Below, piece by piece: positions 10,226 to 31,265 of a stretch of DNA of 32,000 bases. The stretch is taken from the NCBI RefSeq assembly GCF_000017845.1, contig NC_010546.1, positions 3,090,001-3,122,000 of the forward strand, in the 5' to 3' direction. The notes under the pieces are model-generated. The model was not told where the DNA came from. It made no database searches and worked only from the letters and a program-made list of their open reading frames with translations. Every line of letters begins with the position of its first letter. Position 1 is the stretch's first letter. This stretch comes from Crocosphaera subtropica ATCC 51142. GTDB lineage: Bacteria > Cyanobacteriota > Cyanobacteriia > Cyanobacteriales > Microcystaceae. The translations under genes were made by a program, and so were the position numbers.

Positions 10226-10954
10226 ATGATATTATCATCCCCCCCTGTGAATACAGACCCCTTTTTACTTGAAATTGACCACCTTGTCATTTACACAGCA
10301 GAGCCGATCGCTGCCGTCTCCATGTTGCAAGAACTGGGACTCCATAGCTCTAGTCAGACATTGCGACGAAACAATCAAGGAACGGCCTCAACGATCTTTT
10401 TCTTTGAAAATATCTATCTCGAAATTGTCTGGATCGAAGATTACCAAAAAGTTCAGCACTATAGGACACAAACAAACATCGATATTCTCTCTCGGGTTAA
10501 CTGGAAACAGACCGGAGCCTCTCCCTTTGCCATCGGTTTACGTCAGACAACCAGTCTCAGTCGTTTACCCTACGGTGATGATGATAATGGAATCTCCCAA
10601 AGGCTTAACGTGAATGGATGGGTAAACTTTGCCTCGGATAATCTGGCCACCCTATCCGAACCAATTTGTTATAGTATTTCTAATTTAATGGCCTTAACCA
10701 CCTGGCTCGATAATTCTTCTGAAGAACATCAACAATTGATCACCCATCCCCTTAACATCAAAAAATTAACAGACCTTCAGATCACCTTGACCCAACATAA
10801 CTTACTGACTCAAGCCGTTTCCTTGCTAGAGTCTCATAACCTTGTGTCCATCAACCGAGGAACAGCCCCCCAATTAGATTTAACCTTTGACCATCACCAA
10901 CAAGGGCAATACATTGATGTTCGACCAATTTTACCATTGGTACTGAAATATTAA
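10226..10954 (+). CDS. VOC-superfamily (glyoxalase-like domain) protein
   Basis: 242-aa ORF. The N-terminal LEIDHLVIYTAEPIAAVSMLQELGL...GTASTIFFFENIYLEIVWIED matches the Glyoxalase_3-type pattern (IDHLV...A...LGF...GT.N..F....YLELI.I.D). The stop is 3 nt before the receptor start, so the two look translationally linked. Confidence 0.55.
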   Translation: MILSSPPVNTDPFLLEIDHLVIYTAEPIAAVSMLQELGLHSSSQTLRRNNQGTASTIFFFENIYLEIVWIEDYQKVQHYRTQTNIDILSRVNWKQTGASPFAIGLRQTTSLSRLPYGDDDNGISQRLNVNGWVNFASDNLATLSEPICYSISNLMALTTWLDNSSEEHQQLITHPLNIKKLTDLQITLTQHNLLTQAVSLLESHNLVSINRGTAPQLDLTFDHHQQGQYIDVRPILPLVLKY

Positions 10955-10957
10955 GTA

Positions 10958-13630
10958 ATGAAGCAATCTCTTTTTTTTCCCAGTCTTTTTGTGAGTAGTG
11001 CGATCGCCGTATGTGTTTCCCAACCTGCTTGGAGCCAGCCACTTCCCCCCATTGTCCAGATCACCGATCTACGGTTAGAGGCAACGGCAGAAGGGTTGGC
11101 TTTGGTCATTACCACCGCCGACGGTTCACCCCCGCAATTTTTTGAAACCCGCTCAGGGAACACCCTCGTCATCGATTTATTGGATGCTCGGTTGAGCTTA
11201 CCGGGGGGAGGAAAAGAGTTTGTTCAGCAAAACCCCGTCGAAGGGATTGCTTCAATTACCATTAAACAACAGTATCAAACAGGGGTATTCGTCACCATTG
11301 TGGGAGAAACAGAGGTTCCCGTTGCCCAACTGACCACAACCCCCTCCGGACTGGCTGTTCGCTTGCCTGAAACGGGAACAGGGGCGATCGCCCGAACCGA
11401 AATCCCCTCACAAGCCCCTGAAGTTTCTACCACCCCCCCTGACTTGCAACCCCCTGGGTCAACGACTGCCCCGCCGATACCTGGGGAAGAGCCTCAAACT
11501 CCAGTTCAGCCCCCTACCGGTCCCGAAGAATTGCCCGAAGTGATGGTCACTGCCGAACCAGATCCACCACCCCCCCCAGAACCTACCCCAGACCCTCCCC
11601 CGCAACCCCCTCGCTCTCCCTTAGCCGACCGAAGCTATACCCCTCCGAAAACCTCCTCCGTCTCTAGGGATGATTCGCAAATCTTAGACACAGCCCAAGA
11701 CATTGATGTGGTGACAGAAGAAATCATTGAAGACCGTGCTGACCGAACGGTAGGAGAAGCCTTAGAAAATATTAGTGGGGTCACCAGTGGTCGCGCTCCC
11801 ACCAGTTCTGTGGCCTTAACGCCGATTATTCGGGGGTTTGAGTCACAAAATATCCTGAGAAACGGGATGAGAGATGATACCCAGCGATTTTTTGGAGGAA
11901 TTACCACTAATGTAGAACGGATCGAAGTGTTGAAAGGGCCTGCGTCCATTTTGTTTGGTCAAGGAAACCTAGGGGGAACGGTGAATTTAGTGACGAAAGT
12001 TCCCCAACCTGAGTCATTCTTTTCCTTTGAATTTCGAGCCGGGGAATACGATTTTTATCGCCCTGAAATCGATCTTACCGGACCGCTTAATGAGGATGGG
12101 ACAGTGTCCTATCGTCTTGCTGCGTCCTTTGAAACCGCCCGTACCTTCAAAGACTTTGAAGACATTGAAGAGCGTATTTTAATTGCTCCTTCTGTGCGTT
12201 GGGATATTAGCGATCGCACACAAATGATCATTGAAGCAGAGTATATTAAAGAAAAAACCAATGCTCTGGCTCCTGAGTTGCCCGCCGAAGGTACGGTTTT
12301 GAGGAATCCCAACACAGATTTTGAAGGGGAGTTACCCATTGACCGAAATTTAGGAGAACCCTCCTTAGTCGAGAGTTTTGGCTATGTTTCGAGGGTGGGG
12401 TATCGCTTTAAGCATGAGTTTAGTGATAATTGGACCTTTAAAAACGAATTTCTAGCTGCTTTTGGACGAGTGCCAGAAGGGGATGGTAGTGTCTTCATTT
12501 TACCTGTTTCCCTCGGAAGAGATTTGCGGACTTTGACCCGTTTACTGGCAGAAAATCCCTCGAAAGCAGATAATTTCACCATCAATACTACCCTGGTGGG
12601 TAATTTTAAGACTTGGGACATTGACCATAAATTGCTCTTAGGGTTTGAGTATGCTGAAGAACAAACCGAAGATGTGTTAGTCTTTCGGCAAATCGATCCC
12701 ATTGATATTTTCAACCCTATCTATCGTCCTGAGTCCGTAGACCAACCGTTAACCTTCCAAGATTTTCAGTCCCATTTGAATGCGTCAGGGTTTTATTTTC
12801 AAGACCAAATTACCTTATTTGACCGTTTTATTGTGGCCTTGGGCGGACGGTTTGATTATACAGATTTAACCTATACTGATTTTCTGCGAGAAGAAACCCT
12901 AGAAATCAACGATGAGGTGTTTAGTCCCCGTGTTGGCCTCGTTTATAAAGTAACCGATAATATTTCCCTGTATGGTAGCTTTGCCCGTTCCTTTGAACCC
13001 GTTGTTGGCCAAAGTTTTGAGGGAGAGGTATTTGACGCAGAGCGAGGAAAACAGTATGAAGTGGGGGCAAAAGCTCTTTTGTTAGACGAAAAGCTTTCCC
13101 TTTCTGTGTCATTCTACGATTTAACCCGAACCAATCAACTCGAACAAGATCCCGAAAATGCCGGGTTCCAAATCCAAATTGGAGAACAGAGAAGTAGTGG
13201 CTTTGAATTTGATATGATTGGGGAAATTTCACCAGGATGGAATATTATTGGGACATATAGTTACACCGATGCCTTTGTTTCGGAAGACTTAAGACCCGAA
13301 TTTGAGGGGCGCAAACTCCCTAATGTTCCCCTCCACGCAGCCAGTCTCTGGACAACTTACACGTTCCAAGAAGGAACCTTTGAAGGGTTAGGATTTGGGT
13401 TTGGTTTATTTTACCAAGATGAGCGTCAAGGGGATTTGGCCAACACTTTTGTCCTTCCTGCTTATATCAGAACGGATGCTGCTTTATTTTATCGTCTTGG
13501 AGATATTCGGATAGCTTTTAATGTCAAGAACCTATTTGACCACGAATATTATGAAGGAGCGAGGAGTCGTAGTAGAGTTAATCCAGGCGCACCCTTTACC
13601 TTCCAAGGAACCCTCTTTTGGCAATTTTAA
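10958..13630 (+). CDS. TonB-dependent (siderophore-type) outer-membrane receptor with an N-terminal AMIN-like domain and a proline-rich linker
   Basis: 890 aa. Signal peptide MKQSLFFPSLFVSSAIAVCVSQPAWS. AMIN-like segment ITDLRLEATAEGLALVITTADG..NTLVIDLLDARL. Pro-rich segment at about aa 150-215. Plug motifs: DIDVVTEEIIEDRADRTVGEALENISGVTSG and IERIEVLKGPASILFGQGNLGGTVNLVTK. The beta-barrel ends in the aromatic terminus FQGTLFWQF. Confidence 0.9.
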   Translation: MKQSLFFPSLFVSSAIAVCVSQPAWSQPLPPIVQITDLRLEATAEGLALVITTADGSPPQFFETRSGNTLVIDLLDARLSLPGGGKEFVQQNPVEGIASITIKQQYQTGVFVTIVGETEVPVAQLTTTPSGLAVRLPETGTGAIARTEIPSQAPEVSTTPPDLQPPGSTTAPPIPGEEPQTPVQPPTGPEELPEVMVTAEPDPPPPPEPTPDPPPQPPRSPLADRSYTPPKTSSVSRDDSQILDTAQDIDVVTEEIIEDRADRTVGEALENISGVTSGRAPTSSVALTPIIRGFESQNILRNGMRDDTQRFFGGITTNVERIEVLKGPASILFGQGNLGGTVNLVTKVPQPESFFSFEFRAGEYDFYRPEIDLTGPLNEDGTVSYRLAASFETARTFKDFEDIEERILIAPSVRWDISDRTQMIIEAEYIKEKTNALAPELPAEGTVLRNPNTDFEGELPIDRNLGEPSLVESFGYVSRVGYRFKHEFSDNWTFKNEFLAAFGRVPEGDGSVFILPVSLGRDLRTLTRLLAENPSKADNFTINTTLVGNFKTWDIDHKLLLGFEYAEEQTEDVLVFRQIDPIDIFNPIYRPESVDQPLTFQDFQSHLNASGFYFQDQITLFDRFIVALGGRFDYTDLTYTDFLREETLEINDEVFSPRVGLVYKVTDNISLYGSFARSFEPVVGQSFEGEVFDAERGKQYEVGAKALLLDEKLSLSVSFYDLTRTNQLEQDPENAGFQIQIGEQRSSGFEFDMIGEISPGWNIIGTYSYTDAFVSEDLRPEFEGRKLPNVPLHAASLWTTYTFQEGTFEGLGFGFGLFYQDERQGDLANTFVLPAYIRTDAALFYRLGDIRIAFNVKNLFDHEYYEGARSRSRVNPGAPFTFQGTLFWQF

Positions 13631-13648
13631 AAGATAGGAGTTATAAAA

Positions 13649-14398
13649 TTGACAGAAAATTTAGCCCAAATTGATCAATCCCCTCTCTATCATCCCGCAA
13701 TCATTCGTTTAGAAAATATCACGAAAACCTATGGCAGCAATGACATAATGGTGAAAGCGTTAGACAGTGTGAATGTAACGATAGAAAGAGGGGAATACTG
13801 TACCATTATGGGGGCATCAGGGTCAGGAAAATCGACTATGATGAATATTATTGGCTGTCTTGATCGTCCGACATCAGGAGAGTATCATTTAGATAATCTG
13901 GAGGTTTTCAATTTATCTAATTTAGAACTTGCTACTATCCGTAATCATAAAATTGGTTTTGTGTTTCAACAGTTTCATTTACTGCCTCAAATGACTGCCC
14001 TTGATAATGTAATTTTGCCCATGATCTATGGAGGTGTTTCTCGTCAGGAACGCCAAGAAAGGGCGAAATACGCCTTAGAAAGAGTGGGATTAGGAAATCG
14101 TATCCATAATCGACCCAATCAACTCTCAGGGGGACAGCAACAGCGAGTGGCCATTGCCCGTGCTATTGTTAATAATCCCATCCTCTTGTTGGCCGATGAA
14201 CCCACCGGCGCACTGGACTCCAAAACCACTGAGGAAGTTTTAGAAATTTTTGAAACCTTAAATCGATCAGGGATGACTGTTGTGGTAGTTACTCATGAAG
14301 CTGAAGTTGCTCGTCATTCTCAACGGGTAATCTGGTTTCAAGATGGCCAAGTGGTTCATTCCCATCTGAGTCCTGAGAAGGTTGGGATAACTGTTTAG
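13649..14398 (+). CDS. ABC transporter ATP-binding protein, MacB/LolD-type, stand-alone ATPase
   Basis: 249 aa. Walker [11 protein letters not shown]-loop FQQFHLLP, signature [14 protein letters not shown], Walker [14 protein letters not shown]-loop VTHE. It uses a TTG start with AGGAG 8 nt upstream. No FtsX-type permease or membrane-fusion gene is adjacent. Confidence 0.9.
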
Positions 14399-14471
14399 AG
14401 TAATCTATATGAGTATAAGAAATTTTTTAGCATAAGTAAAAAAGAATGGTCTTTTAATCAGGAATTACGTT

Positions 14472-15293
14472 ATGGAATGGTTGTCTGCTCCCCTTAGCTT
14501 TGCCAAGTATGTATTAACGGCCTTTATCATGTATGGTTGTTTTATCCTCATTGAGCGTTTACGTCCCGTTGAACCGCATCAACCCCTAAGTCATCTCTGG
14601 TTTAACTTACGATGGTATGTTGTTTATACGTTGGTAAGTTTTGCCCTTCAAGCCATAGGAATAGGTATTGTAATTAATTTAATGCAAAATTGGTTAGGAT
14701 TACCGTTAATTAACTTACCGGTGCCGGATACCCCTTGGCTTTATGGACTGATGGCATTATTCTATTTTTTAGTTACAGATTTTTTCTATTATTGGTTTCA
14801 CCGTTGGCAACATACCACCCGGTTATGGGAACAGCATAAGTTTCATCATAGTGAAATGTCTCTGAATGTGACCAGCACACGACGGGTACATTGGTTAGAA
14901 GATCCCTTGTTACTGTTATTTTTAGGGCTTCCTATGGGATTATTGTTTCAGTTTAATGGTCTGGCGTTAGGAATTTTAACGTTTATTGAAATTCTTTGGT
15001 TACAGTTTATTCATTTGAATCTACGATTAAACTTAGGTTGGTTATCCCCTGTGATCACCGGTCCACAATATCATCGTCTCCATCATTCCTTTCAAACGGA
15101 GCATTTAGATAAGAATTTTGCTGCTTTTTTCCCGTTATGGGATATTCTATTTGGAACTTATTATCATCCCCGTCGTGATGAGTTTCCCCCCACAGGATTG
15201 ACAACAGGAGAAACTTACAATAATTTATGGGAAGCGAATCTTTTGCCCTTTCGAGGATGGCTCGGTTCTCAGTCAGTACCTGAACATAAATAA
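14472..15293 (+). CDS. Fatty acid hydroxylase / sterol desaturase superfamily integral membrane di-iron enzyme
   Basis: 273 aa with several hydrophobic helices. Histidine boxes: HRWQH (HX3H), HKFHH (HX2HH) and HRLHH (HX2HH). AGGAA lies upstream of the ATG. Confidence 0.8.
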   Translation: MEWLSAPLSFAKYVLTAFIMYGCFILIERLRPVEPHQPLSHLWFNLRWYVVYTLVSFALQAIGIGIVINLMQNWLGLPLINLPVPDTPWLYGLMALFYFLVTDFFYYWFHRWQHTTRLWEQHKFHHSEMSLNVTSTRRVHWLEDPLLLLFLGLPMGLLFQFNGLALGILTFIEILWLQFIHLNLRLNLGWLSPVITGPQYHRLHHSFQTEHLDKNFAAFFPLWDILFGTYYHPRRDEFPPTGLTTGETYNNLWEANLLPFRGWLGSQSVPEHK

Positions 15294-15362
15294 ATGTTAC
15301 TGGTTAAGTGAAGCAGGGGAAGCAGAAGGAAAGATTTTTAGTAACCAATAAAGTTTAGCGTA

Positions 15363-18300
15363 ATGATGAAAACGATTGATGAATTTTTAGCCCATCTTTA
15401 CCGTTTAGAGGTTAATCTTTGGTTAGAAGGCGATCGCCTACGCTGTAGCGCACCAGAAGAAGTATTAACCCCTGATCTCACAGAAGCACTTCAGTCCCGA
15501 AAAGGGGAGATAATTAACTTTCTCAAGCAAGTGAATCTTACGGTTAATACTGACTTAGAACCTATTAAACCCATTAACAGGGATCAACCTCTTCCCCTCT
15601 CTTTTGCTCAACAACGGTTGTGGTTCCTCGAACAGTTACAACCAGGGAGCTTTACCTATCATATTCCCACTGCGGTACGATTAACGGGTTCCCTTAATAT
15701 TCCTGTCCTAGAACAGAGTTTTAATGAAATTATTCGTCGCCATGAAACCCTACGCACCCATTTTACAATGGTCGAGGGGGAACCTGTTCAGGTTATTGAT
15801 GCAACGTTAACCCTATCTCTTCCTATTTTAAGCTTAGAATCCTTGGATGAGAGGGAGCAAGAGGCAGAAGTATTCCGTTTAGCTAGCCAAGAAGCGCAAA
15901 AACCTTTTGATTTAGCCCAAGATCCCTTACTCAGAGTTACCTTGCTGCGACTCAACCCAGCCGATCATGTGGTGCTATTGACCCTACACCATATCATTGC
16001 TGATGGTTGGTCGATGGATATTTTGATCCGAGAGTTAACCTGTCTCTATGAAGGGTTTTTAAAGGGTGAGTCGTCTCCTCTTCCCCCGTTACCGATCCAA
16101 TATGGAGACTTTGCCGCTTGGCAACGGCAACGCCTTCAAGGGGAAAAACTCGCTCAGCAACTGGCTTACTGGAAAGAGCAACTACAAGGCAGTCTCAGTG
16201 TTTTACAACTGCCCACTGATTTTTTACGCAGTAGAATACAAGGGTTTCGAGGGGGCAATGAAACGTTTACGTTATCCCCTAGGTTAACAGACAAACTTAA
16301 AGCCCTGAGTCAACAGGAAGGGGCTACTCTTTTTATGACCCTGTTGGCTGCGTTTAAGGTGCTGCTTTACCGTTACACTGGCCAGGAAGATATCATTGTT
16401 GGTTCTCCCATTGCTAACCGTAATCGTTCGGAAATCGAAGGATTGATCGGTTTTTTTGTTAACACTTTGGTATTGCGGACAAATGTAGCAGGAAATCCCA
16501 GTTTTCAGTCTTTATTAAATCAAGTGCGAGGAGTAACCTGGGGAGCTTACGATCATCAGGACTTGCCCTTTGAAAAATTAGTGGAAGAGTTACACCCAGA
16601 ACGGGATTTGAGTTACAATCCTTTGTTTCAAGTAAAATTTCGCTTAGAAAATGCGCCAACGGAGTCTTATTCTCTACCCGACTTAACCTTACGTTCTTTG
16701 AAACAGGCTTACTCTACTGCTAAGTTAGATTTAAGCTTGGATATGTATGAAACAGCAACGGGTTTAGTCGGTGGTTTTGAATATAATCGAGATTTGTTTA
16801 CCCCAGAAACCATTAACCGTATGGTAGGGCATTTTTGTACCCTGTTGGAAAGCATTGTTGATGATCCCACTCAACCGATTTCTGAATTATCTCTGTTGAG
16901 TGAAGAAGAAGAACAAACCATATTATACGACTGGAACAATACTCAAATCGATTATGCTGAAAATTGCTGCTTCCATCAACTATTTGAGGAACAAGTTGCA
17001 AAAAATCCTGATGCAGTTGCGTTAATCTTTGAAAGCCAGTCCTTAACTTATCAAGAACTGAACCAACAAAGCAATCAACTCGCCCATTATCTGCAAACGT
17101 TGGGAGTCAAACCAGAAGTTAAAGTGGGGATCTGTGTCGAGCGATCGCCTGAGATGATTATTGCGTTATTAGCCATTTTTAAGGCAGGAGGGGCTTATGT
17201 TCCCCTTGATCCGGCCTATCCCCAAGAACGGCTTGCTTTTATGGTGTCTGACTCGCAAATTTCGGTGTTATTAACCACAGAAACCTTAGCCCCAACCATT
17301 CCCCAAGCTCAAGCTCAGGTGATCTGTCTTGATAGGGACTGGAAAACGATTCGTCAAAAATCACAGGATAATCCTATCGGTGGGGTAACACCACAAAATT
17401 TAGCCTATCTCATCTATACGTCAGGCTCAACTGGCACGCCAAAAGGGGTTTTGGTGAGTCATGGAGGCTTAGTTAACTTAACCGAAGATAAAATTCGGGT
17501 GTGTCAAGTTTCCCCTGATAGCTGCGTTCTTCAGTTCTTCTCCTTTAGTTTTGATGCGTCTATCCCTGAAATAATCATGGCCTTGGGTTGTGGGGCAAAG
17601 CTTTGTTTAGCAAAATTAGAATCTTTGTTACCTGGCCCTAATCTCCTAAAATTGTTAAAAGATGAAAAAATTACCCATATAACAATTACCCCCTCTGCCC
17701 TATCGAACTTAGCCGTTACCGACTTACCCGACTTGGAAATGGTTTTAGTAGGAGGTGAGGCCCCCTCCCCTGAGCTTATAGACAACTGGTCAGGCGATCG
17801 CCTATTTATTAATGCCTACGGCCCCACAGAAGTAACCGTTAACGCCAGTATGGTTCCCTGTGGTAACGGCCATCCCACCCTTCCCACCCTTCTTCCCAGT
17901 GCCAATAAACAGCTTTATATTTTAGATCGTCATCTGCAACCCGTTCCTGTCGGAGTCTTAGGAGAGCTCCATATTGGGGGTGTGGGGTTAGCAAGGGGTT
18001 ATCTCAACCGTCCTGACTTAACTGCAGAAAGATTTATCCCCAGTCCTTTTGATCCCCCCCTTCCACTCCTTAGGAAAGGGGGGAAGAAGCAGGGAGCAAG
18101 ATTATATAAAACGGGGGATCTGGCCTGTTATTTGCCTGATGGTCGCATTAAATTATTAGGTCGTCTGGATAACCAGCTTAAAATTAGAGGGTTTCGCCTA
18201 GAAACCGGGGAAATTGAAACATTATTACAACAACATCCCCAGATTAAAGCGACTGTGGTCATAGGGCGAGAAGAGGTATCAGGAGATAAACGTTTAGTGG

Positions 18301-18785: not shown

Positions 18786-18960
18786 GTGTTTAATTTAGAA
18801 CTCACATCTTGCACCTTCGCTCAAACAAAGCTCCTTTAGAGAGGGAAAAGGGAACAGAGTTTATTTTGACATTGATTTTCTGTCCTTGGTTATGGAGTTT
18901 TCCTGTACTGGTGCAAGCTATCAGTAGAACCTACTTGAATTATTAAAAAAATTCTCAAAA

Positions 18961-22008: not shown

Positions 22009-22076
22009 GAAGAGTTTGAACCGTCTCAAACAAATTTTCCCCTATTTATAACTTTTGACTTCTTCACTTATGTCCT

Positions 22077-22991
22077 ATGACTTCCCAAACCCCCCACACG
22101 TCCCCAACCATGCTTACTGAAGACCGCTATACTGAATACGATACTTGGGCCTGGCTTTATAACGAAACGATGGGGCCTGAGTATGGTAAAAATCAAGAAA
22201 AGCCGATAGAAACCCTGTTACTGTCTCGCCTAGGAGAAGAGGCCACACTGCTGGATCTCTGTTGTGGAACGGGGCATTTAACTCAACAATTACTAGAAAA
22301 AGGGTATCAAGTTACGGGATTTGATGGCTCTGAGGGAATGTTAGCTTATGCGAGACAAAATGCCCCAAACGGTAGGTTTTTGGTCGGAGATGCCCGTGGG
22401 TTCAATTTGCCGAATGAGTTTGATGGGGTTGTTTCAAGCAGTGCTTCTCTCAATCATATTTTAAGTCTAGAAGATTTAAAAAAGGTCTTCGAGAATGTTT
22501 ATATAGCTTTGCGAAACAATGGGTTATTCTTATTTGATATGAATCATCCCGAACAGATGAAAAAATGGTGGAAAGGTAAAATTGTTGAGGGAGAAATTGC
22601 TGATGAGTATGCTTGGATGTTAGTTCCTAATTATAATGCTGAAGATAAGACAGGGAATTTTGCCATTACCCTTTTCCAAGCTCCCAATAGTCAATATTTT
22701 TCTTTATGGTCTGTGTTGAAATATCCTTTTAAGCAACTTTTATATAAACTTTTAAACTTAAGGCTATTGACTCGATTTCGGTTAAAATTATTAGCCAATT
22801 TTTCAACATGGGAAAAAGAATGGCAGCGATCGCAAATGGTTTATCAAGTAAGAGGATATGATGTAGAAGAGATTAAAATGCTTTTAGAATCAGTAGGTTT
22901 TGTTGACGTAGAGATCCGAATTATTGACGGAAGTTGTAACTTAGATAGTAATCATTCCGCTTATTTTATCTGTCGTAAACCAAGTACATAA
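22077..22991 (+). CDS. Class I SAM-dependent methyltransferase
   Basis: 304 aa. Motif I LLDLCCGTGHLTQQLLEKGYQVTGFDGSEGML, post-I GDARGF, motif II/III region FDGVVSSSASLNHI...LRNNGLFLFD. An alternative start is Met12 (22110). Confidence 0.85.
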   Translation: MTSQTPHTSPTMLTEDRYTEYDTWAWLYNETMGPEYGKNQEKPIETLLLSRLGEEATLLDLCCGTGHLTQQLLEKGYQVTGFDGSEGMLAYARQNAPNGRFLVGDARGFNLPNEFDGVVSSSASLNHILSLEDLKKVFENVYIALRNNGLFLFDMNHPEQMKKWWKGKIVEGEIADEYAWMLVPNYNAEDKTGNFAITLFQAPNSQYFSLWSVLKYPFKQLLYKLLNLRLLTRFRLKLLANFSTWEKEWQRSQMVYQVRGYDVEEIKMLLESVGFVDVEIRIIDGSCNLDSNHSAYFICRKPST

Positions 22992-23013
22992 TTAATTATA
23001 AATCAGTAACCAT

Positions 23014-24504: not shown

Positions 24505-24561
24505 GCTAATTAATTTATTTATTGATGAAACAGTTTAAAACAATCAAGGAGGTTTACCAAT

Positions 24562-24861
24562 ATGGCAGTTATGGGAAAATATTGTAAGGCATATCTTTTA
24601 AAAGATTTACGTCAATTTAGTCAGTGGACTGAACAAGCAGAAAATGTCAGGGAAGAAACCCAAGAGGTTGAAGGGAAGCAAGTTCAAGTTAAGCGAAAAT
24701 TAAGGGATGATGATTTTCTCTATTTACAAGAAAATTATGTGGTTACCGATGGCATTTTTAAGGATGAAAACATTATTTTTGACAAGGTAACTGATGACTG
24801 GAAAGACTTTTGTAACAATAGACTCCAGTTTGAAATCCCTTTAGCTGTTGAGTCTAATTAA
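24562..24861 (+). CDS. Conserved hypothetical protein (99 aa)
   Basis: AGGAGG lies about 10 nt upstream. The N-terminal GKYCKAY.L..LR.F..W motif resembles a small cyanobacterial protein family of unknown function (from memory). No catalytic motif was recognised. Confidence 0.55.
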   Translation: MAVMGKYCKAYLLKDLRQFSQWTEQAENVREETQEVEGKQVQVKRKLRDDDFLYLQENYVVTDGIFKDENIIFDKVTDDWKDFCNNRLQFEIPLAVESN

Positions 24862-25008
24862 TGGGAAAAGTTGTAATTTTCCTTGATAAATCTGAGCAAT
24901 GATTTATGGAGCAACTATGTTTATTCCTTGAGTTGAAAAATCAAAATGAACCCAGTATAATCATTCCATGAAAAGCTGACAATCAATCTAAATTAATTGG
25001 AGAAAACC

Positions 25009-25230
25009 ATGCAACAAGATCACAGAGAAGATACAACGATCTATCGAGTTGTGGTCAACCACGAAGAACAATATTCTATTTGGCCAGAGTATCGAGACAT
25101 TCCTCCAGGTTGGCGAGATACAGGAAAAAGTGGACAAAAACAAGAGTGTCTTGACTATATCAAAGAAGTTTGGACAGATATGCGTCCTCTCAGTTTACGC
25201 AAAAAAATGGAAGAATCTGCTCATGGTTAG
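25009..25230 (+). CDS. MbtH-like protein (NRPS adenylation-domain chaperone)
   Basis: [49 protein letters not shown] carries the N.E.QYS.WP...P.GW...G....CL.YI...WTDMRP signature. I chose the ATG at 25009 (GGAG 7-10 nt upstream) over the track start at 24997, which is a TTG. Confidence 0.9.
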
Positions 25231-25272
25231 CTTGCCTAAAATCGAGCAGCTAATCGATCAATTGACCACTTT

Positions 25273-25734
25273 ATGACCCAACCTTATCCTAACTATTTAC
25301 TTGAGTTGCTAGTTCCTTGGGACTTACCCATCGAACAGCAACTTGATGAGTTTGATAAGGAACAATTAACCAAAATACTTGATCAATTTTTACAAGCTTT
25401 AGAACAACCATCCCCAGAAAAAGAACGCATTATTATTGAGCAAATATTAGTCTCCCTTGAAACAATAGAAGTGTTTCCTGTTGAGATTCCCTCAACAAAA
25501 TCTTATCTTGAAAATTGGGAGGTTGCTGATTACGATAAATATTTTGATGTTATGCGTGTACAAAGTGCTAAACCTGCATTTTCCCTATTAAAAGGAGTTG
25601 TGATCGCTTACCACGCCTTTTTATCACTTCATTATCAAAATAAACAATTAAACTCAACACAAATAGTATTGCAAAAGCAAGGATTTATTAGTTATGCTTG
25701 TTTACTGATTAGAGTGTGTGATTTACCCTTATAA
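25273..25734 (+). CDS. Hypothetical protein (153 aa), acidic and predicted helical, no recognisable motif
   Basis: The ORF follows the MbtH-like gene after 42 nt on the same strand inside the NRPS cluster. I recognise no family. Confidence 0.45.
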   Translation: MTQPYPNYLLELLVPWDLPIEQQLDEFDKEQLTKILDQFLQALEQPSPEKERIIIEQILVSLETIEVFPVEIPSTKSYLENWEVADYDKYFDVMRVQSAKPAFSLLKGVVIAYHAFLSLHYQNKQLNSTQIVLQKQGFISYACLLIRVCDLPL

Positions 25735-25842
25735 AAACCGATGATTTTTTTGAATAAGTATTAACAAAAAACCAGAATAAGTGGCTAAACAAAATTACTT
25801 ACACATCAACACTAGCGAATTAATTTTGCACAACTACTGAAT

Positions 25843-26370
25843 ATGAATAAACTTAACTCTGTACAAACTTGGAAAGGCTTTCACTGGGCTTTTTTTATCA
25901 ATATCCAGGGACTCATTATCTGTCTACAACGCTTTGAAAAATATGTAATGACTGAGGATATTCCCAAAGCAAAAATTGAACTAGAAACAGCAACACAGCT
26001 AATTTTAGCCTCTGGTGCAGCCATGCAACTCGCAGGAAGTTTTAACCGACAAGAATATGAAAATAAAGTGCGTCAAACCATGACTCCGCCTTCTGTACAG
26101 TCAGAAAATTTTAGCGGTTTGATGTCTTGGGAACACGCTTCTTTAATACAGCTTTGGAAAAAACTTCGACCTGTTTTTGAAACTTTACCACCGTCTTTAA
26201 AACCACATCATGAAAAGTTTGTTGCTGCTTATTTTAGTCTGATTAATTCCCATAAAAAAGTTTGTAAAAAATTTGGTGGTGGCGAATCAGGAAGTTTACG
26301 GTTTGGTAATACAAAAGCCGTTGATACCTTGGAAAAATTTGGTCATGGGCGAGCTAAACTGATTAAGTAA
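25843..26370 (+). CDS. Hypothetical protein (175 aa), helical. The stop codon lies in the terminus of MITE copy 2.
   Basis: ORF in the cluster. Motifs FSGLMSWEH and SHKKVCKKFGGGESGS are noted, but I cannot place them in a family. Confidence 0.5.
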   Translation: MNKLNSVQTWKGFHWAFFINIQGLIICLQRFEKYVMTEDIPKAKIELETATQLILASGAAMQLAGSFNRQEYENKVRQTMTPPSVQSENFSGLMSWEHASLIQLWKKLRPVFETLPPSLKPHHEKFVAAYFSLINSHKKVCKKFGGGESGSLRFGNTKAVDTLEKFGHGRAKLIK

Positions 26371-26500
26371 TATGAAATCTCTTTGAATACTATACTTTAT
26401 AGTAGGATAAGTAGGGGGAGCAGAGGAGGCAGAGGAAGCAGGGGAGAAGGGGTTTACAGTCATGATTTTAATGATGAGGAATTAAGCAGATTTTATATAA
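26368..26500 (+). mobile_element. MITE-like small dispersed repeat, copy 2 (full length, ~130 bp), filling the gap between two convergent genes
   Basis: Terminal inverted repeats: atatgaaatct (26370-26380) versus agattttatat (26488-26498), 10/11 complementary. The body has a purine-rich core (26411-26452) and the module gtttacagtcatgattttaatgatgag.attaagc, which is shared with copy 3. Confidence 0.7.
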
Positions 26501-26519
26501 CTCTTTTTAAGAATTGGTA

Positions 26520-29500
26520 TCATTTCAATTTTTTGACCGACTGTTTGAGTTTACCCAAAAACTGATCCAGTTGCTTTTGATCGAGGTTGGCTGAAGCAAA
26601 GTCTGAAGGGGTATAACCGCCAGTCTTGGAAGACTGACAATGGACAATAAACGCTTCTAGGGTACTCAGAACTTTCTTCCCTAGGCCTTCTATGGTTTCA
26701 CGACGATGGATCTGCTGACTATAGGTCAAGGTTAATTGTAACTGTTTTTGAGCGATCGCCCCTGTTATTTCCAGTAAGTAACGACGACTTCCTTGAGGAG
26801 AACGAACCCACCCTGTTGACTCCTCCGCTAGTCCTGAGATAAATTCTTGAGTGGTGATCCGATCAACTTCACCCAGATAGTTAAAATTGATGGAAGATGA
26901 CCTTTTATTGAGGATTTTTCGCCCCAAATAACGCAGAATACCGTAATTAATTCCCTGTTTAGCGACCTGACGATACTGTTCTTTTACAGACTTGATCACG
27001 TCTCCCAAAGACCCCATAGACTTTAATTCTAATCGTACAGGAAAAATGACAGTAAACCAGCCGACGGTACGGGAGAGATTAACCGTTTCAAAGATATCTT
27101 CCCGTCCATGACCCTCTACATCAATGATCAGCGATCGCTCACCAGTCCATTGAGAAATACTTTGATACAATGCAGCAAGTAACACCTCATTGAGTTGGGC
27201 ATGATAAGCTGAAGCCACTTCTTCTTGTAAAGCATTGGTTTGTTCGATACTGAGGGTAAGGGAAATGCGATCGCTTGACCCTACAGTATTATGATTCAAG
27301 CTTGTATAGTCTGTCGGTAGAGAAACCCCCTCAGACATTGACCAGACATCACTATCTAACCCCTCAGACTGACTATAATTAAGTAGCTGGTTGGCCCAGG
27401 TTTGATAAGCAGTGGTTTTCGGTGGCAGTTTAACCAGTTCTCCGTGTAATAATTGCTGATAAACAGTGACAAAATCTTCTAATAAAATGCGCCAGGACAC
27501 GCTATCTACTACCAGGTGATGAATAACGAATAAAAGACGACTTTTTTGCCCTTTTCCTAAGTCAAACCAAGCACCTCGAACCAGTAGCCCTTCCGATAAG
27601 TTCAAGGTAGTTTGTAACCTAGCACAGATGGATTCTATGGCTAAACTTTGAGCTTTTTTGCTTAAATTTTCGAGATTAATGGTTGAAAAAGGAATATTAT
27701 TATCAGTATTCCCATAAAACTGTTTCCATGCTTCCCCCTGCTGCGTAAATCGAAGTCTGAGAGCATCATGATGGATTAATAAGTGATGTAATGCCTGTTC
27801 TAAATAGTAGGGATTAAGATCAGGGAGAGCCTCTAACAATAAGGTTTGATTATAGTGGTGAGGGTCAGGTAACTGCTGCTCAAAAAACCAATGTTGAATA
27901 GGGGTCAAAGGCACCGAACCTGTTACCATGCCTTGCTCTGCTGAGGTTGTGGCTAAAACATTGGCAACGGAGGCTAATTCGGCGATGGTTTGACACTGAA
28001 ATAACTGCCTTGGGGTTAATTGTAACCCCGCTTGATTCGCCCTAGCAATGATTTGCAGACCTAAAATAGAGTCTCCCCCCAATTCAAAAAAGTTATCATA
28101 AACACCAACCTCCATCTTGCCTAAAACATCCCGCCAAATCTCGGTTAGCGTCGCTTCTTGGGGGGTACGAGGTTCTATTAGGCTTTTTTTGACATTTCTC
28201 TGGGAAAAGTCCGCCACAGGGAATCTTTGACGGTCAATTTTACCGTTTGGGGTCAAAGGAAAAGCATCTAATGAAATAAATAACGTCGGAACCATATAGG
28301 CCGGCAGCTTCTCAGACAAAAACTGACGCAGATCAGGGGGTTCAGAGGAAGCCACCACATAAGCCACTAAACGAGGAGTCTTGTTATTATCTTCTTGAAC
28401 AACAGCGATCGCCTCTTGAACCTGGGGATGCTGTCTTAACATTCCTTCAATTTCCCCTAATTCAATGCGAAATCCCCGAATTTTAACCTGATTATCAATA
28501 CGTCCTAAATATTCTATTGTTCCATCTGGTAGGTAACGAGCCAGATCCCCCGTTTTATACAAACGACTCCCTTCGATCCCCCCAACCCCTCTTAGTAAGG
28601 GGGGCGAAGGGGGGAGCGGAATAAACCTTTCTGCGGTTAAGTCGGGTCGGTTAAAGTACCCTCTAGCAACCCCAACCCCACCGATATAGAGTTCCCCTGG
28701 AACCCCTATGGGAGTTGGTTGTAAGTATTGATCTAAGATGTAAAGTTCAGTATTAGCGATAGGACGACCGATAGGAACATTCTCTGTCTGAGAGACTTGA
28801 GACGGAACTTCATAAACACAGCAACCGACAACGGTTTCGGTGGGGCCATATTCATTGATCAGACGAGTCTGGGGACATTTTTCTTGCCAAAAGGTCAAAC
28901 TGTGTTGCGATAAAGCTTCACCCCCAATAATTAAAGCATGACTTTGAGGGATTTTTTCTTTTTCAGCTAATAAAGAATTTAAAATACTTAAGTGAGCGGG
29001 AGTTAGCTTAACTAAACTTAAGTTTTCTTGGGTAAATACTTCACTTAACGCTTCAATTTCCCCTGTTTCTGGCAATAAAATTACTTTTTGTCCCACTAAA
29101 AGGGGAGTCAATAAACTGGTAATGGTGGCATCAAACGCAATAGAAGAATTAACAGGAGAACCACACCCTTCCGTCACAGGATAAGTAGCGATCGCCCAGG
29201 TTAAATAATTACTCAAACCACCATGAGTGATCAAGGTTCCTTTGGGTTTTCCTGTCGATCCTGATGTATAAATCACATAAGCTAAATTATCTTCAAATAA
29301 GGAAATAACGGAATTTTCCTGACTTTCAGAGGCAATAAGTGGCCAATCTTGATCAAGGGTTATTTTGGAGGCAGAAGTAGGGAATGTTTGAGAAATAGCT
29401 GTTTTTGTCTCCGTTAACAACACTGCTATTTGAGCATCTTCAACCATAAAAGCAATGCGTTCAGACGGGTAAGTAGGATCAATGGGAACATAAGCGGAAC

Positions 29501-31265
29501 CTGCCTTGAGAACCCCTAAAATAGCAATTAATAGATCAGGCGATCGCTCCATCAAAATGCCTACTTTGACCTCTGGTTTCACCCCCAAAGTTTGTAGATA
29601 ATGGGCTAGTTGGTTCGCTTTGCTGTTGAGTTCTCGATAGGTTAGTTGTTGTTGTGCAGAAGTAACAGCAATATTATTGGGCGTTTTTTCAACTTGTGCT
29701 TCAAACAGTTGAGAAATAAAAATATTTTCCAGTTGCTTAGTCTCTGTTTTATTCCACTCAAGCAATAACTGTTTTTCTTCCTTTTCAGTCAATAAAGACA
29801 GTTCAGAAATATGAGCTTGAGGCTTACTAATAATATCCCTTAAAAGTACCTGAAAATGACCTAACATACGGGCGATCATTTCAGCCTCAAACAGATCAAG
29901 ACTATATTCGACCACCGCTAACAGTCCCGTTTCCCGTTCTACTAGATGCCAAGTCATATCAAACTTAGTAGACTGGGTATCGATCCAAGACTGAGAGAGA
30001 CTTAACCCAGGGATAGCCAGTTCAGGAGAAAGAGCATTTTGTAGTTGATAGGCTTCATTTTGTACTTGAAACATTACCTGAAATAGAGGATTATGACTTT
30101 CATCCCGTTCAGGTTGCAGGGTGTCTACTAACTTGGCAAAGGGTAAATCTTGATGTTGGTACGCTTGGGAAGTTGTCTGTTTAACTTGCTTCAATAAAGC
30201 TACAAAAGAAGGATTACCAGATAAATCACTGCGTAAAACCAACGTATTAACAAAAAAACCAATTAATGGCTCCGTTTCCGCCCAATTTCGATTAGCAATA
30301 GGCGAACCGACTACAATATCATTCTGACCACTATAACGATGGAGTAAAATTTTAAAGGCAGTCAACAGGGTCATAAATAAAGTGACTCCCTGCTGACGAC
30401 TCAGGGTTTTTAGCGCATTAGTTAACGCTTTATCCAGAGTAAAAGATTGAATGCCACCTCGCAACGTCGGTACATGAGGACGAGGGTAGTCTGTGGGAAG
30501 ATTAAGCACAGAAACATTAGCTAATTGTTTCTTCCAATAGTCTAAGTGTGCTTGTAACTCTTCTCCTGCTAACCATTGTCTTTGCCAGGCTGCAAAATCA
30601 CTGTATTGAATAGATAACTCAGGTAAAGAAACGGACTCACCCGAAGAAAATGCTTTGTAAACAGTCGCTAACTCTTTTAACAAAATACCCCTTGACCAAC
30701 CATCGGCAATAATATGGTGAAGAACAACCAATACAGTCGATTTTTGGGGACTTAATTGAAGCAACCACACCCGTAATAATAAATCTTCTGCTAAGTTAAA
30801 AGGTTGTTTTGCTGCTTTGTTTTCCAAATACTTTACTTCTTTTTCTCGTTTCTTTTCTGGTAATTGTTGTAAATCAATTTTTGGAACTGTTAACGTTAAA
30901 TTAGGGATTATTTCGACAATAGGGTTCCCCTCAACGGCCATAAACCTTGTTTTTAAAGACTCATGACGCTTAATAATTGTATTAAAACTTTTTTCTAAAA
31001 TAGTATGATCAAGACTTCCCGTAAACTGCCAGGCGATCGCAATATTATAGGCAGGACTTTCAGGATCTAGTTGATGTAGAAACCATAATCTTTCTTGGGC
31101 TAAAGACAGCGGTATATTCTCATAATTTTGCCGTTTAGGAATAGTTTGCTGGGGAATTTGTAGATTTTTTTCTTTTAATTGTTGCTCAAAAATTGCCCGT
31201 TTTTCAGGAGGTAAAGCAGCAATTCGTTGTTTTAAAGCTTCTAAATTTGTTTTTTTTCCAGACAT
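26520..31265 (-). CDS. Non-ribosomal peptide synthetase, one module: C-A-T-E (A-domain code matches Asn, with a terminal epimerisation domain)
   Basis: 1581 aa. C domain: LSLAQERLWFL, HHIIADGWS (aa 183-191), IGFFVNTLVLR. A domain: LAYVIYTSGSTGKPKGT, FDATITS, NEYGPTE, YKTGDL, GRIDNQVKIRGFRIELGEIE, PNGKID. T domain: FFELGGDSILGLQI, the GGDSI form typical of carriers that feed an E domain. E domain: HHLVVDSVSWRILLEDF, ending ..GGYTPSDFASANLDQKQLDQFLGKLKQSVKKLK. Confidence 0.97.
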   Translation of the reverse strand: MSGKKTNLEALKQRIAALPPEKRAIFEQQLKEKNLQIPQQTIPKRQNYENIPLSLAQERLWFLHQLDPESPAYNIAIAWQFTGSLDHTILEKSFNTIIKRHESLKTRFMAVEGNPIVEIIPNLTLTVPKIDLQQLPEKKREKEVKYLENKAAKQPFNLAEDLLLRVWLLQLSPQKSTVLVVLHHIIADGWSRGILLKELATVYKAFSSGESVSLPELSIQYSDFAAWQRQWLAGEELQAHLDYWKKQLANVSVLNLPTDYPRPHVPTLRGGIQSFTLDKALTNALKTLSRQQGVTLFMTLLTAFKILLHRYSGQNDIVVGSPIANRNWAETEPLIGFFVNTLVLRSDLSGNPSFVALLKQVKQTTSQAYQHQDLPFAKLVDTLQPERDESHNPLFQVMFQVQNEAYQLQNALSPELAIPGLSLSQSWIDTQSTKFDMTWHLVERETGLLAVVEYSLDLFEAEMIARMLGHFQVLLRDIISKPQAHISELSLLTEKEEKQLLLEWNKTETKQLENIFISQLFEAQVEKTPNNIAVTSAQQQLTYRELNSKANQLAHYLQTLGVKPEVKVGILMERSPDLLIAILGVLKAGSAYVPIDPTYPSERIAFMVEDAQIAVLLTETKTAISQTFPTSASKITLDQDWPLIASESQENSVISLFEDNLAYVIYTSGSTGKPKGTLITHGGLSNYLTWAIATYPVTEGCGSPVNSSIAFDATITSLLTPLLVGQKVILLPETGEIEALSEVFTQENLSLVKLTPAHLSILNSLLAEKEKIPQSHALIIGGEALSQHSLTFWQEKCPQTRLINEYGPTETVVGCCVYEVPSQVSQTENVPIGRPIANTELYILDQYLQPTPIGVPGELYIGGVGVARGYFNRPDLTAERFIPLPPSPPLLRGVGGIEGSRLYKTGDLARYLPDGTIEYLGRIDNQVKIRGFRIELGEIEGMLRQHPQVQEAIAVVQEDNNKTPRLVAYVVASSEPPDLRQFLSEKLPAYMVPTLFISLDAFPLTPNGKIDRQRFPVADFSQRNVKKSLIEPRTPQEATLTEIWRDVLGKMEVGVYDNFFELGGDSILGLQIIARANQAGLQLTPRQLFQCQTIAELASVANVLATTSAEQGMVTGSVPLTPIQHWFFEQQLPDPHHYNQTLLLEALPDLNPYYLEQALHHLLIHHDALRLRFTQQGEAWKQFYGNTDNNIPFSTINLENLSKKAQSLAIESICARLQTTLNLSEGLLVRGAWFDLGKGQKSRLLFVIHHLVVDSVSWRILLEDFVTVYQQLLHGELVKLPPKTTAYQTWANQLLNYSQSEGLDSDVWSMSEGVSLPTDYTSLNHNTVGSSDRISLTLSIEQTNALQEEVASAYHAQLNEVLLAALYQSISQWTGERSLIIDVEGHGREDIFETVNLSRTVGWFTVIFPVRLELKSMGSLGDVIKSVKEQYRQVAKQGINYGILRYLGRKILNKRSSSINFNYLGEVDRITTQEFISGLAEESTGWVRSPQGSRRYLLEITGAIAQKQLQLTLTYSQQIHRRETIEGLGKKVLSTLEAFIVHCQSSKTGGYTPSDFASANLDQKQLDQFLGKLKQSVKKLK

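Follow-up and report, generated by a model that had tools for sequence, protein, structure and literature searches.

A putative Dmaq-family catecholate siderophore locus with a docking-recruited hydroxylase–reductase fusion in Crocosphaera subtropica ATCC 51142

Genes and features of the locus

The DNA analysed here, a 32-kb window from Crocosphaera subtropica (Cyanothece) ATCC 51142, carries twelve co-oriented genes on the forward strand (10226–26370) followed by a convergent NRPS gene on the reverse strand (26520–31265), and all 13 are intact. Our ORF and domain calls agree with the original prediction on this layout (ten or more co-oriented genes plus one convergent NRPS), on the presence of a reductase–CmlA fusion, a methyltransferase, a class-III aminotransferase, an MbtH-like protein and a membrane di-iron hydroxylase, and on the domains of the two modules, C-A(Asn)-T-E and dock-C-A-T. 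The features are as follows.

10226–10954, +, Glyoxalase_3-like (VOC-fold) protein, first of the co-oriented string (PF13468, 26.5 bits, barely over the cutoff)
10958–13630, +, AMIN-domain TonB-dependent siderophore receptor (AMIN, Plug and 22-strand barrel domains)
13649–14398, +, MacB/LolD/DevA-type ABC ATPase subunit (Pfam ABC_tran)
14472–15293, +, integral-membrane di-iron FA_hydroxylase-family enzyme (PF04116, 97.8 bits)
15363–18785, +, NRPS-B, TubC_N docking-C-A-T with an A domain predicted to take L-DOPA (Pfam domains)
18961–22008, +, CmlA_N/MBL-TubC_N-thioester reductase fusion, CmlA-dock-R (Pfam domains), comprising the next three entries
18961–20565, +, CmlA-type non-haem di-iron beta-hydroxylase domain, N-terminal part (CmlA_N, PF18456, 322 bits; MBL fold)
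20656–20799, +, internal TubC_N docking domain (PF18563, 74.9 bits, residues 566–613)
20896–22008, +, thioester reductase (R) domain, in trans (TIGR01746, 341 bits; cutoff 213)
22077–22991, +, class-I SAM methyltransferase (Pfam methyltransferase domains)
23014–24504, +, class-III (HemL/GSA-aminomutase-like) aminotransferase (PF00202)
24562–24861, +, orf99, small conserved cassette protein (homologues in related loci)
24997–25230, +, MbtH-like protein, A-domain chaperone (PF03621, 87 bits); the public gene call starts at 25009, giving 73 aa
25273–25734, +, orf153, FbnL-like putative partner subunit of a two-protein haem peroxidase (homology and gene position)
25843–26370, +, orf175 (cce_3049), FbnM-like, counterpart of SfmD's haem-binding C-terminal half (match to SfmD 6VDP)
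26366–26500, no strand, direct repeat (copy 1), in the gap separating the orf175 and NRPS-A stop codons
26520–31265, −, NRPS-A, C-A(Asn)-T-E with a COM-donor-like C-terminal tail (Pfam domains)
31364–31480, no strand, direct repeat (copy 2), in the gap separating the start of NRPS-A from the MFS stop codon
31494–32000, −, MFS transporter gene, 3' part, leaving the window (MFS_1 match)

The cassette genes and NRPS-A are under purifying selection, with dN/dS values against C. watsonii of 0.12–0.18 (0.14 for orf99). As anticipated from the start, release would fall to a reductase: a domain search of the ORFs found no thioesterase domain in any of them, and an R domain is present. The window contains no initiation (loading) module and no NRPS gene besides NRPS-A and NRPS-B. 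No Fur box was found in the intergenic regions using the E. coli consensus, which is a weak test for cyanobacteria.

The receptor had been placed in an operon upstream of the cluster; it lies inside the interval and in the same gene string. It scores 376.5 bits against TIGR01783 (siderophore receptor; cutoff 223.5) and has an orthologue in C. watsonii (locus L011, 75% identity) that also adjoins NRPS genes, and by this analogy it is likely to be the importer of the cluster's ferric complex. The AMIN-TBDT class has been described (bioRxiv 10.64898/2026.07.30.741596). The Glyoxalase_3-like protein that precedes the receptor has no NCBIfam match and no homologue in the related loci L004–L097. The ABC ATPase is closest to the NCBIfam models for MacB, DarD, LolD and DevA, each under its cutoff, and no permease gene adjoins it. 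The FA_hydroxylase is weakly similar to the ornithine-lipid hydroxylase OlsE and has homologues (59–73% identity) in five other loci, all with a CmlA-type cassette and no visible tyrosinase gene. The MFS reading frame stays open between 32000 and 31494 and runs beyond the window, and the locus therefore extends further than the original prediction had it; the MFS product is a candidate exporter.

Predicted DOPA supply, the fusion protein and the cassette family

The product of orf175, 100% identical to cce_3049, has a precomputed PF27188 match and aligns with residues 183–336 of SfmD (6VDP, E 3.5e-10), the H-x3-C stretch included; its match to RenD has a probability of 99.2% (hhalign). It is 65% and 48% identical to the corresponding genes of A. 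cylindrica and Agrobacterium. The orf153 product shares 42% identity with its A. cylindrica counterpart, encoded immediately 5' of the FbnM-like gene there, and 30% (E 5e-12) with the 'siderophore biosynthesis protein' of Agrobacterium at the same position, and showed no significant similarity to the N-terminal half of SfmD/RenD. Based on these homologies orf175 is predicted to hydroxylate tyrosine to DOPA, and we infer that orf153 and orf175 together form an FbnL/FbnM-like two-protein haem peroxidase of the SfmD type. The product of orf99 is 70% identical to Limnoraphis orf112a, and homologues occur in both cassette classes, in 25 other loci among those fetched. The three ORFs originally listed as unknown are all conserved members of the cassette.

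NRPS-B has the A-domain code DAPTLGAVNK, which recurs unchanged in the anachelin locus (L009), the Agrobacterium fbn-like locus (L098) and at least 47 loci overall; the C domain of NRPS-B is closest to solved structures of the LCL type, not DCL. NRPS-B ends with an acidic docking tail, EEREEIEI, and the corresponding motif ...EREEIE[FIL] is conserved among CmlA-type loci. In 41 loci CmlA-dock-R always follows a C-A-T protein with this ending. Within the fusion, a low-complexity linker and an internal Met precede a TubC_N domain that shares 65% identity with the one at the N-terminus of NRPS-B. The tail of NRPS-B, which fits the motif conserved in 36 loci, and this PF18563 domain form a matching docking pair.

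The CmlA domain matches PDB 8A90 over its full length (residues 6–529, E 8e-142), with the metal-site stretches HNHQDH, GEH, ADS and MECDGAP retained, and its residues 7–522 align with CmlA 4JO0 (E 1e-115); the individual metal ligands we take to be those of the CmlA structure. The docking-domain fusion and the conserved tail of the T domain suggest that it may beta-hydroxylate carrier-bound DOPA. The R domain displays the GATGFLG and YAQSK motifs, over its full length it is most like MxcG's R domain, and it would release the chain reductively as an aldehyde. The aminotransferase, which resembles HemL and GntE and is 53% identical to that of the Agrobacterium cassette, is predicted to turn the aldehyde into a primary amine. 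The methyltransferase is predicted to N,N-dimethylate this amine; it is 42% identical to that of the Agrobacterium fbn-like cassette, and its best NCBIfam similarities, all below cutoff, include the daptide methyltransferase and BioC as equals and a weaker glycine/sarcosine N-methyltransferase. A naturally fused CmlA-dock-R-methyltransferase protein also exists (P0064).

Judged by homology and gene order, the set of dock-C-A-T, reductase, methyltransferase, class-III aminotransferase, orf99, MbtH, orf153 and orf175 is a Dmaq cassette of the anachelin/fabrubactin family: the locus has an FbnM-like gene with an FbnL-like gene directly 5', the A-domain code, and adjacent R, aminotransferase and methyltransferase genes. 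The gene set had seemed unrecognisable at first, yet its core is the Dmaq cassette of anachelin, for which a cluster model is published (Calteau 2014, PMC4247773), and of fabrubactin, as summarised in an eLife 2026 paper (PMC12971057). That paper also reports that FbnL/FbnM make L-DOPA, describes FbnL/FbnM-type split peroxidases as marking metallophore clusters, and regards Dmaq as among the oldest chelating groups; the antiSMASH NRP-metallophore rule likewise uses FbnL plus FbnM as its marker. In a sample of 53 Dmaq cassettes, taken as one genome per species and only from loci with the 5' part of the cassette visible, 41 have the CmlA-dock-R form (38 intact, 3 split), and no product of any CmlA-type cassette is described in the literature searchable here.

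Taken together, the region probably represents the C-terminal, chelator-forming half of a Dmaq-family catecholate siderophore pathway along with its uptake genes. Several observations count against this reading: CmlA-type cassettes have no described product in the searchable literature, the window carries neither an initiation module nor a tyrosinase gene, the NRPS-A tail is of the wrong type for the DOPA module, both C domains look LCL-like, the Fur-box scan was negative, and orf153 did not match the SfmD N-terminal half significantly. The receptor and the beta-hydroxylase had been read as hints of an iron-chelating product; such a product is indeed likely, but the signal for it stems from the catechol (DOPA/Dmaq) pathway and not from the beta-hydroxylase.

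NRPS-A and alternative readings

Reading of the A4/A5 motifs gave the NRPS-A code DATKIGEVGK, against the canonical Asn code DATKVGEVGK, and the Asn assignment holds; automatic alignment had given C at position 9. The E-domain motifs HHLVVD, EGHGRE and FNYLG are present, and the conserved tail follows the pattern YTPSDF..NL.QKQLD.FL. Orthologues of NRPS-A (77–78% identity) were found only in Crocosphaera, in varying contexts. The gene is flanked by direct repeats of about 135 bp (82% column identity including one 18-nt indel), whose 22-mer core has exactly two occurrences in the window against none expected by chance, and public short-read contigs break at copy 1.

One reading of the window, in line with the original prediction of only two modules, is a self-contained line, in which NRPS-A passes epimerised Asn to NRPS-B for an (acyl-)D-Asn-DOPA-derived diamine and nothing outside is needed. 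In its favour, the two NRPS genes are adjacent, intact, under purifying selection and of the same dS (NRPS-A against C. watsonii has dN/dS 0.14 and dS 0.92, similar to the cassette genes), and the 32-kb window has no other NRPS gene. We nevertheless consider this arrangement unlikely, and the claim that only two modules are involved doubtful, because the tail of NRPS-A, ...LDQFLGKLKQSVKKLK, resembles a COM donor (TPSDF...LDQFL) and is without the ...RKEIEL motif that precedes the DOPA module in 18 loci, and so does not fit the TubC_N domain of NRPS-B; because NRPS-A lies between the 135-bp repeats and, in other Crocosphaera genomes, shows no linkage to the cassette; and because a Ser module present in C. 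watsonii, DCL/COM-acceptor-like at its N-terminus and ending in a ...RKEIEI tail, fits at both ends between NRPS-A and NRPS-B. In addition, NRPS-A ends in an E domain, yet both C domains look LCL-like. By analogy with C. watsonii, NRPS-A probably contributes D-Asn to the upstream chain, and a Ser module encoded beyond the window probably acts next.

The absent loading module and the mismatched docking ends could also be taken as signs of decay, the upstream modules having been lost and the siderophore no longer made. In the same direction, the locus of C. watsonii WH 8501 is broken by a transposase with its receptor in two ORFs, and in Crocosphaera sp. Alani8 the cassette is spread over several contigs. 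Against this, 13 of 13 genes are intact here, the dN/dS values are low, and the docking domains and tails are conserved, and a non-producing remnant appears improbable. A product other than a siderophore, for example a bioactive catecholamine-like peptide alkaloid beside a receptor that is adjacent by coincidence, would be in keeping with the use of SfmD-type enzymes in tetrahydroisoquinoline antibiotics (saframycin, renieramycin) and with the frequency of R-domain release among non-siderophore peptides. We regard it as very improbable: FbnL/FbnM-type split peroxidases are themselves metallophore-cluster markers (PMC12971057), iron-uptake genes (ExbB/D, TonB, TBDR and periplasmic binding protein) recur beside Dmaq-type cassettes in many species, and the linkage of receptor and NRPS is kept in C. 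watsonii.

Proposed pathway and comparison with known systems

For the siderophore half-pathway, the homologies, the identical A-domain code, the gene order, the conserved docking tails and the purifying selection lead us to propose the following sequence of catalytic steps. L-DOPA would be made from L-tyrosine by orf153 and orf175, adenylated by NRPS-B with the MbtH-like protein and coupled to the upstream peptidyl or acyl chain. The acidic tail EEREEIEI would then recruit CmlA-dock-R through its internal TubC_N, the di-iron domain would beta-hydroxylate the carrier-bound DOPA residue, and the R domain would free the chain as an aldehyde, to be converted by the aminotransferase to a primary amine and N,N-dimethylated by the methyltransferase. 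Finally, the catechol may be oxidised to the o-quinone, and the tertiary amine may attack it to close a Dmaq-like tetrahydroquinolinium catechol, probably with an extra hydroxyl; because the window is without a tyrosinase gene (one is present in 15 related loci), we infer this ring closure rather than assign it to a gene. The product may be exported by the MFS protein and its ferric complex imported by the AMIN-type TonB-dependent receptor.

The cluster is thus of a known kind, and what sets it apart is that the R domain is detached from the NRPS, fused to a CmlA-type hydroxylase and recruited by docking. Characterised cyanobacterial siderophores are few, with 24 structures in six families (2026 preprint). 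The Dmaq compounds of known chemistry both come from hydroxylase-free cassettes, whereas the fusion is the majority form in the sampled species genomes, and its product would therefore complete the chemistry of most cyanobacterial Dmaq clusters. We tentatively suggest, as a possibility somewhat short of even, that the CmlA-dock-R cassette makes an undescribed chelating unit, a beta-hydroxylated Dmaq or an uncyclised beta-hydroxy-catecholamine, which would be the commonest version of an ancient cyanobacterial chelator, and that the marine diazotroph genus Crocosphaera has its own multi-locus catecholate siderophore. ATCC 51142, a laboratory strain in wide cultivation, would be convenient for such work. 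Such a siderophore, if true, would bear on iron acquisition by unicellular marine nitrogen fixers, and a docking-recruited, fused tailoring and release protein is a neat case for NRPS engineering.

The anachelin locus of A. cylindrica PCC 7122 has the same order of DOPA/Tyr module, reductase, methyltransferase, class-III aminotransferase, FbnL-like and FbnM-like genes, with the same DAPTLGAVNK code and an N-terminal TubC_N on the module. Close by are an AMIN-type TonB receptor and an MFS gene transcribed towards the FbnM-like gene. The anachelin locus differs in that its R domain is in cis (dock-C-A-T-R) with no CmlA domain, in the salicylate, PKS and Thr-Ser-Ser modules and PLP-decarboxylase-like gene beside its cassette, and in its receptor, which is only 34% identical to that of ATCC 51142. 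Fabrubactin (Agrobacterium fabrum C58) was compared through the fbn-like locus of A. tumefaciens 15955 pAt, which shares the A-domain code and the order dock-C-A-T-R, methyltransferase (42%), aminotransferase (53%), MbtH (60%), FbnL (30%) and FbnM (48%). This locus is proteobacterial, again has R in cis without a CmlA domain, and carries FAAL, PKS and flavin-monooxygenase genes and large multi-module NRPSs.

In chloramphenicol biosynthesis the di-iron CmlA acts on an aromatic amino acid bound to its carrier, adding a beta-hydroxyl before a thioester reductase sets the residue free, and the logic of hydroxylation before reductive release would be the same here. CmlA is free-standing there and R is in cis on CmlP (A-T-R), whereas in ATCC 51142 the two are fused and docking-recruited, the predicted substrate is DOPA within a peptide, and transamination and N-methylation would follow release. 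Myxochelin is a catecholate siderophore released as an aldehyde by an R domain and then transaminated by a HemL-like aminotransferase (MxcG/MxcL); the R domain of ATCC 51142 is most similar to that of MxcG, but the myxochelin catechols are 2,3-DHB units, and its pathway has no methylation, ring closure or hydroxylase. Lastly, orf175 resembles the haem-binding C-terminal half, with its H-x3-C stretch, of the saframycin and renieramycin 3-methyltyrosine peroxygenases SfmD and RenD; SfmD comprises about 350 aa in one polypeptide, whereas its predicted counterpart in ATCC 51142 is split over two genes.

Gene content and the Dmaq cassette

ORF listing and Pfam scans of the window gave 12 genes in one orientation at 10226-26370, with a C-A-T-E peptide synthetase convergent on them and no thioesterase (TE) domain in any window ORF by Pfam, which bears out the gene set described in the original prediction, although the TonB-dependent receptor that it had placed upstream of its interval lies inside it.

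Genes of the region in window coordinates; the 12 co-oriented genes are numbered from 10226. Assignments are from the ORF listing and Pfam.
Gene 1, from 10226, +, Glyoxalase_3-like protein
Gene 2, +, TonB-dependent receptor, AMIN-Plug-barrel
Gene 3, 13649-14398, +, ABC ATPase
Gene 4, +, FA_hydroxylase-family membrane protein
Gene 5, 15363-18785, +, NRPS-B, TubC_N-C-A-T, predicted DOPA module
Gene 6, 18961-22008, +, CmlA-dock-R fusion: CmlA_N/MBL hydroxylase, internal TubC_N docking domain, thioester reductase (R)
Genes 7 and 8, +, SAM methyltransferase (MT) and class-III aminotransferase (AT)
Gene 9, 24562-24861, +, orf99
Gene 10, +, MbtH-like protein
Gene 11, 25273-25734, +, orf153 (FbnL-like)
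Gene 12, 25843-26370, +, orf175 (FbnM-like), end of the string
26520-31265, -, NRPS-A, C-A-T-E, convergent on the string
From 31494, MFS gene, ORF open at the right edge of the window

A peptide synthetase of Crocosphaera subtropica ATCC 51142 (formerly Cyanothece sp.) matches NRPS-A at 100% identity, as cce_3049 of the same organism does orf175. At its Stachelhaus positions NRPS-A has DATKIGEVGK (automatic alignment gave C at position 9), an Asn-like code that upholds the earlier Asn call. An Rfam scan of the window returned 0 matches, and we found nothing specific in the literature on the cce_ locus tags of the region, PDB 8A90 or any siderophore of the strain or the genus Crocosphaera.

orf175 aligns with SfmD residues 183-336 (PDB 6VDP), with a histidine and the H-x3-C stretch matched up, and its family profile matches RenD, the SfmD orthologue, at 99.2% probability; SfmD is a 3-methyl-L-tyrosine peroxygenase. 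Between orf153 and the N-terminal half of SfmD/RenD no significant match came from a profile search of the PDB or from hhalign (E 0.25); orf153 is homologous to the gene directly before the FbnM-like gene in A. cylindrica, Agrobacterium and related loci. Members of the small-ORF family of orf99 occur in 25 further loci, which include both types of cassette, and the NRPS-B adenylation code, DAPTLGAVNK, recurs unchanged in the anachelin and Agrobacterium modules, and in 47 loci overall. Dmaq serves as the catechol chelating group in both anachelin and fabrubactin, and its synthesis starts with a haem peroxidase made up of two proteins, FbnL and FbnM, that converts L-Tyr to L-DOPA (PMC12971057); FbnL plus FbnM is also the antiSMASH detection rule for Dmaq, and Calteau et al. 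gave its formation in the anachelin cluster to an NRPS, a reductase, a methyltransferase, an aminotransferase and a 'tyrosine hydroxylase' (PMC4247773). Judged from sequence, the cluster is a member of this known siderophore family and its product is likely a siderophore. The iron-related interpretation put forward originally thus stands, together with release by a reductase, whereas the view of an unrecognised pathway has to be given up, and the three ORFs listed as unknown (orf99, orf153 and orf175) are all conserved members of the Dmaq cassette.

The receptor scores well above the NCBIfam siderophore-receptor cutoff, and an orthologue with 75% identity adjoins the C. watsonii NRPS genes; AMIN-type TonB-dependent transporters are a cyanobacterial siderophore-uptake class (bioRxiv 10.64898/2026.07.30.741596). 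In many related loci exbB/exbD/tonB, binding-protein or ferredoxin-like genes directly follow the FbnM-like gene, and this speaks for the family as a whole making siderophores. The best intergenic match in a Fur box scan, 13/19, lies outside the cluster, the E. coli consensus being a weak test for cyanobacteria. The GC peak at 11378-11663 (0.54 vs ~0.42) was rejected as foreign DNA, being the proline-rich linker from the AMIN domain to the plug of the receptor. The MacB/DevA-type ABC ATPase gene that comes next to the receptor is isolated, with no permease or membrane-fusion gene in the window, and the glyoxalase-like gene has no counterpart among the related loci.

At the left end, the first 1878 aa of a giant protein are encoded at 1-5634 (-), and its gene continues beyond the window. 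They comprise DUF4347 followed by 11 cadherin-like/Big_9 repeats, encoded by a tandem array of 348-bp units (522-4067; 10.2 copies, 96% identical), with hemolysin-type GGxGxD repeats near the end. C. watsonii has a DUF4347 gene as well, after its FbnM-like gene, and in Crocosphaera sp. Alani8 a neighbour of the NRPS-A orthologue is a cadherin-like gene. Two tandem paralogous PPC-domain proteins, 5828-7678 and 7695-9632 (-), are nearly identical over their C-terminal ~170 residues; the former has a Pfam PEP-CTERM sorting-signal match and the tail of the latter is near-identical.

The hydroxylase-reductase fusion and product release

FbnM-like genes were sought in one genome per species and the best 80 loci were annotated with the domains of the window. 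The reductase is in cis (dock-C-A-T-R) in 12 of them, A. cylindrica loci included, and also in the Agrobacterium locus, which was fetched separately. An intact C-A-T protein followed by CmlA-dock-R occurs in 38 of the 80, the window counted in, and three more have a split form; the fusion protein has >100 relatives, which share 47-79% identity with it and come almost all from cyanobacteria. Over its first 530 residues the protein is homologous to CmlA along the full length of the latter (PDB 8A90, E 8e-142; CmlA, E 1e-115), and the metal-site stretches are conserved. The T domain before it carries the C-terminal motif ...EREEIE[FIL] in all CmlA-type loci (EEREEIEI in the window), and the internal TubC_N domain probably pairs with this tail.

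Since the CmlA domain is found with the DOPA module regardless of which module lies upstream, Ser in several loci and Asn in the window, its substrate is most likely the carrier-bound DOPA residue. In chloramphenicol biosynthesis CmlA acts together with CmlP, and a CmlA domain acting on DOPA bound to NRPS-B would follow a similar logic. In the literature found, no product is described for a CmlA-type cassette; what appears to be new is this fusion type, common and with a product lacking description, together with the split architecture. Variants were also seen: a 1342-aa relative (P0064) carries the methyltransferase as well (CmlA-dock-R-methyltransferase), the release protein of one locus (L038) has two docking domains, and another (L066) has dock-R without CmlA. 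In Crocosphaera sp. Alani8 (L007, L010) an AraC-type regulator, not a DOPA module, precedes CmlA-dock-R, and the FbnM-like gene is on a separate contig with a 10-kb upstream flank free of cassette genes.

By NCBIfam, the R domain is nearest to that of MxcG and AT is similar to HemL and GntE, which fits a predicted route in which R would yield an aldehyde, AT an amine and MT a dimethylamine; release would thus be by reductase rather than TE. The top similarities of MT, all sub-threshold, include a daptide MTase and, equally strong, O-methyltransferase BioC, so that its chemistry is not settled by NCBIfam. In 15 loci (among them L012, L013, L015, L020, L022 and L026) the FbnM-like gene is closely followed by one for a tyrosinase, which fits the catechol oxidation proposed to precede Dmaq ring closure (PMC6562677). 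The window has no tyrosinase gene. FA_hydroxylase homologues occur in five other loci (L027, L034, L055, L073, L088), all CmlA-type with no tyrosinase in view, and in L055 and L073 they lie just after the FbnM-like gene, as tyrosinase does elsewhere. Within the sequence in view no locus has both genes (15 loci for tyrosinase and, window included, 6 for FA_hydroxylase), the expected overlap being ~1 locus, a hint, from too few loci, that FA_hydroxylase may replace tyrosinase. As a maker of beta-OH-Asn it was dropped; the cyanochelin 'CyanoBH_Asp' hydroxylases are TauD-family proteins unrelated to either window hydroxylase.

Relationship between NRPS-A and NRPS-B

The cluster had been described as only two modules, and a closed line from NRPS-A to NRPS-B is probably wrong. 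In 18 loci the protein before the DOPA module has the tail ...GRKEIEL. The tail of NRPS-A, YTPSDFASANLDQKQLDQFLGKLK..., is instead a COM-donor-type helix of the kind usual at E-domain termini, and it is kept in three Crocosphaera genomes. The C domain of NRPS-B is much nearer to LCL-type solved structures than to DCL examples. The C. watsonii WH 8501 locus encodes, at L011:14122-17271, a C-A(Ser)-T protein with an N-terminus, MIDKRKNIADIYPLSPLQEG..., of the DCL/COM-acceptor kind and the tail ...QRKEIEI, and by these termini the Ser module would fit exactly between NRPS-A and NRPS-B. Orthologues of NRPS-A (77-78% identity) were found in Crocosphaera only and in differing neighbourhoods, one of them after PKS and exbB-exbD-tonB genes.

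NRPS-A is also bracketed by direct repeats of 135 bp (26366-26500 and 31364-31480), both of which contain a 9-nt microrepeat of the GGAGCAGAG type as well as the start of a small minus-strand ORF, MT[AV]NP...YPTIKYSIQRD; public short-read assemblies end contigs at both. They could be copies of a dispersed element, or could have arisen by duplication when the NRPS gene was inserted. Against C. watsonii, dS of NRPS-A is 0.92, the same as for the cassette genes, and dN/dS is 0.12-0.18 in all tested genes, so the genes are not decaying. It is the NRPS-A tail, the LCL-like NRPS-B C domain, the Ser module, the orthologue neighbourhoods, the repeats and the contig breaks that argue against a closed line, and we read the Crocosphaera pathway as probably spread over several loci, with the window containing the Asn module, the receptor and the end that forms the chelator. 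The C. watsonii WH 8501 locus (L011) has an IS with HTH and DDE_3 transposase (12344-13631) between cassette and Ser module, and its receptor (17600-20303) is two overlapping ORFs and may be a pseudogene.

Comparison with the anachelin and Agrobacterium loci

The anachelin locus of A. cylindrica has, in order, dock-C-A-T-R, MT, class-III AT, a 157-aa ORF and the FbnM-like gene, followed by MFS, binding-protein, AMIN-receptor and AraC genes. Only a PLP-decarboxylase-like gene separates its FbnM-like gene from the convergent MFS gene, whereas the window has NRPS-A there. The A. tumefaciens pAt locus has the same cassette as the window, its proteins being 30-60% identical, with adjoining FAAL, PKS and flavin-oxidoreductase genes; such genes reportedly lie beside the cassette in the fabrubactin cluster. 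In both loci the reductase is in cis, whereas in the window it is part of a separate protein, fused to CmlA.
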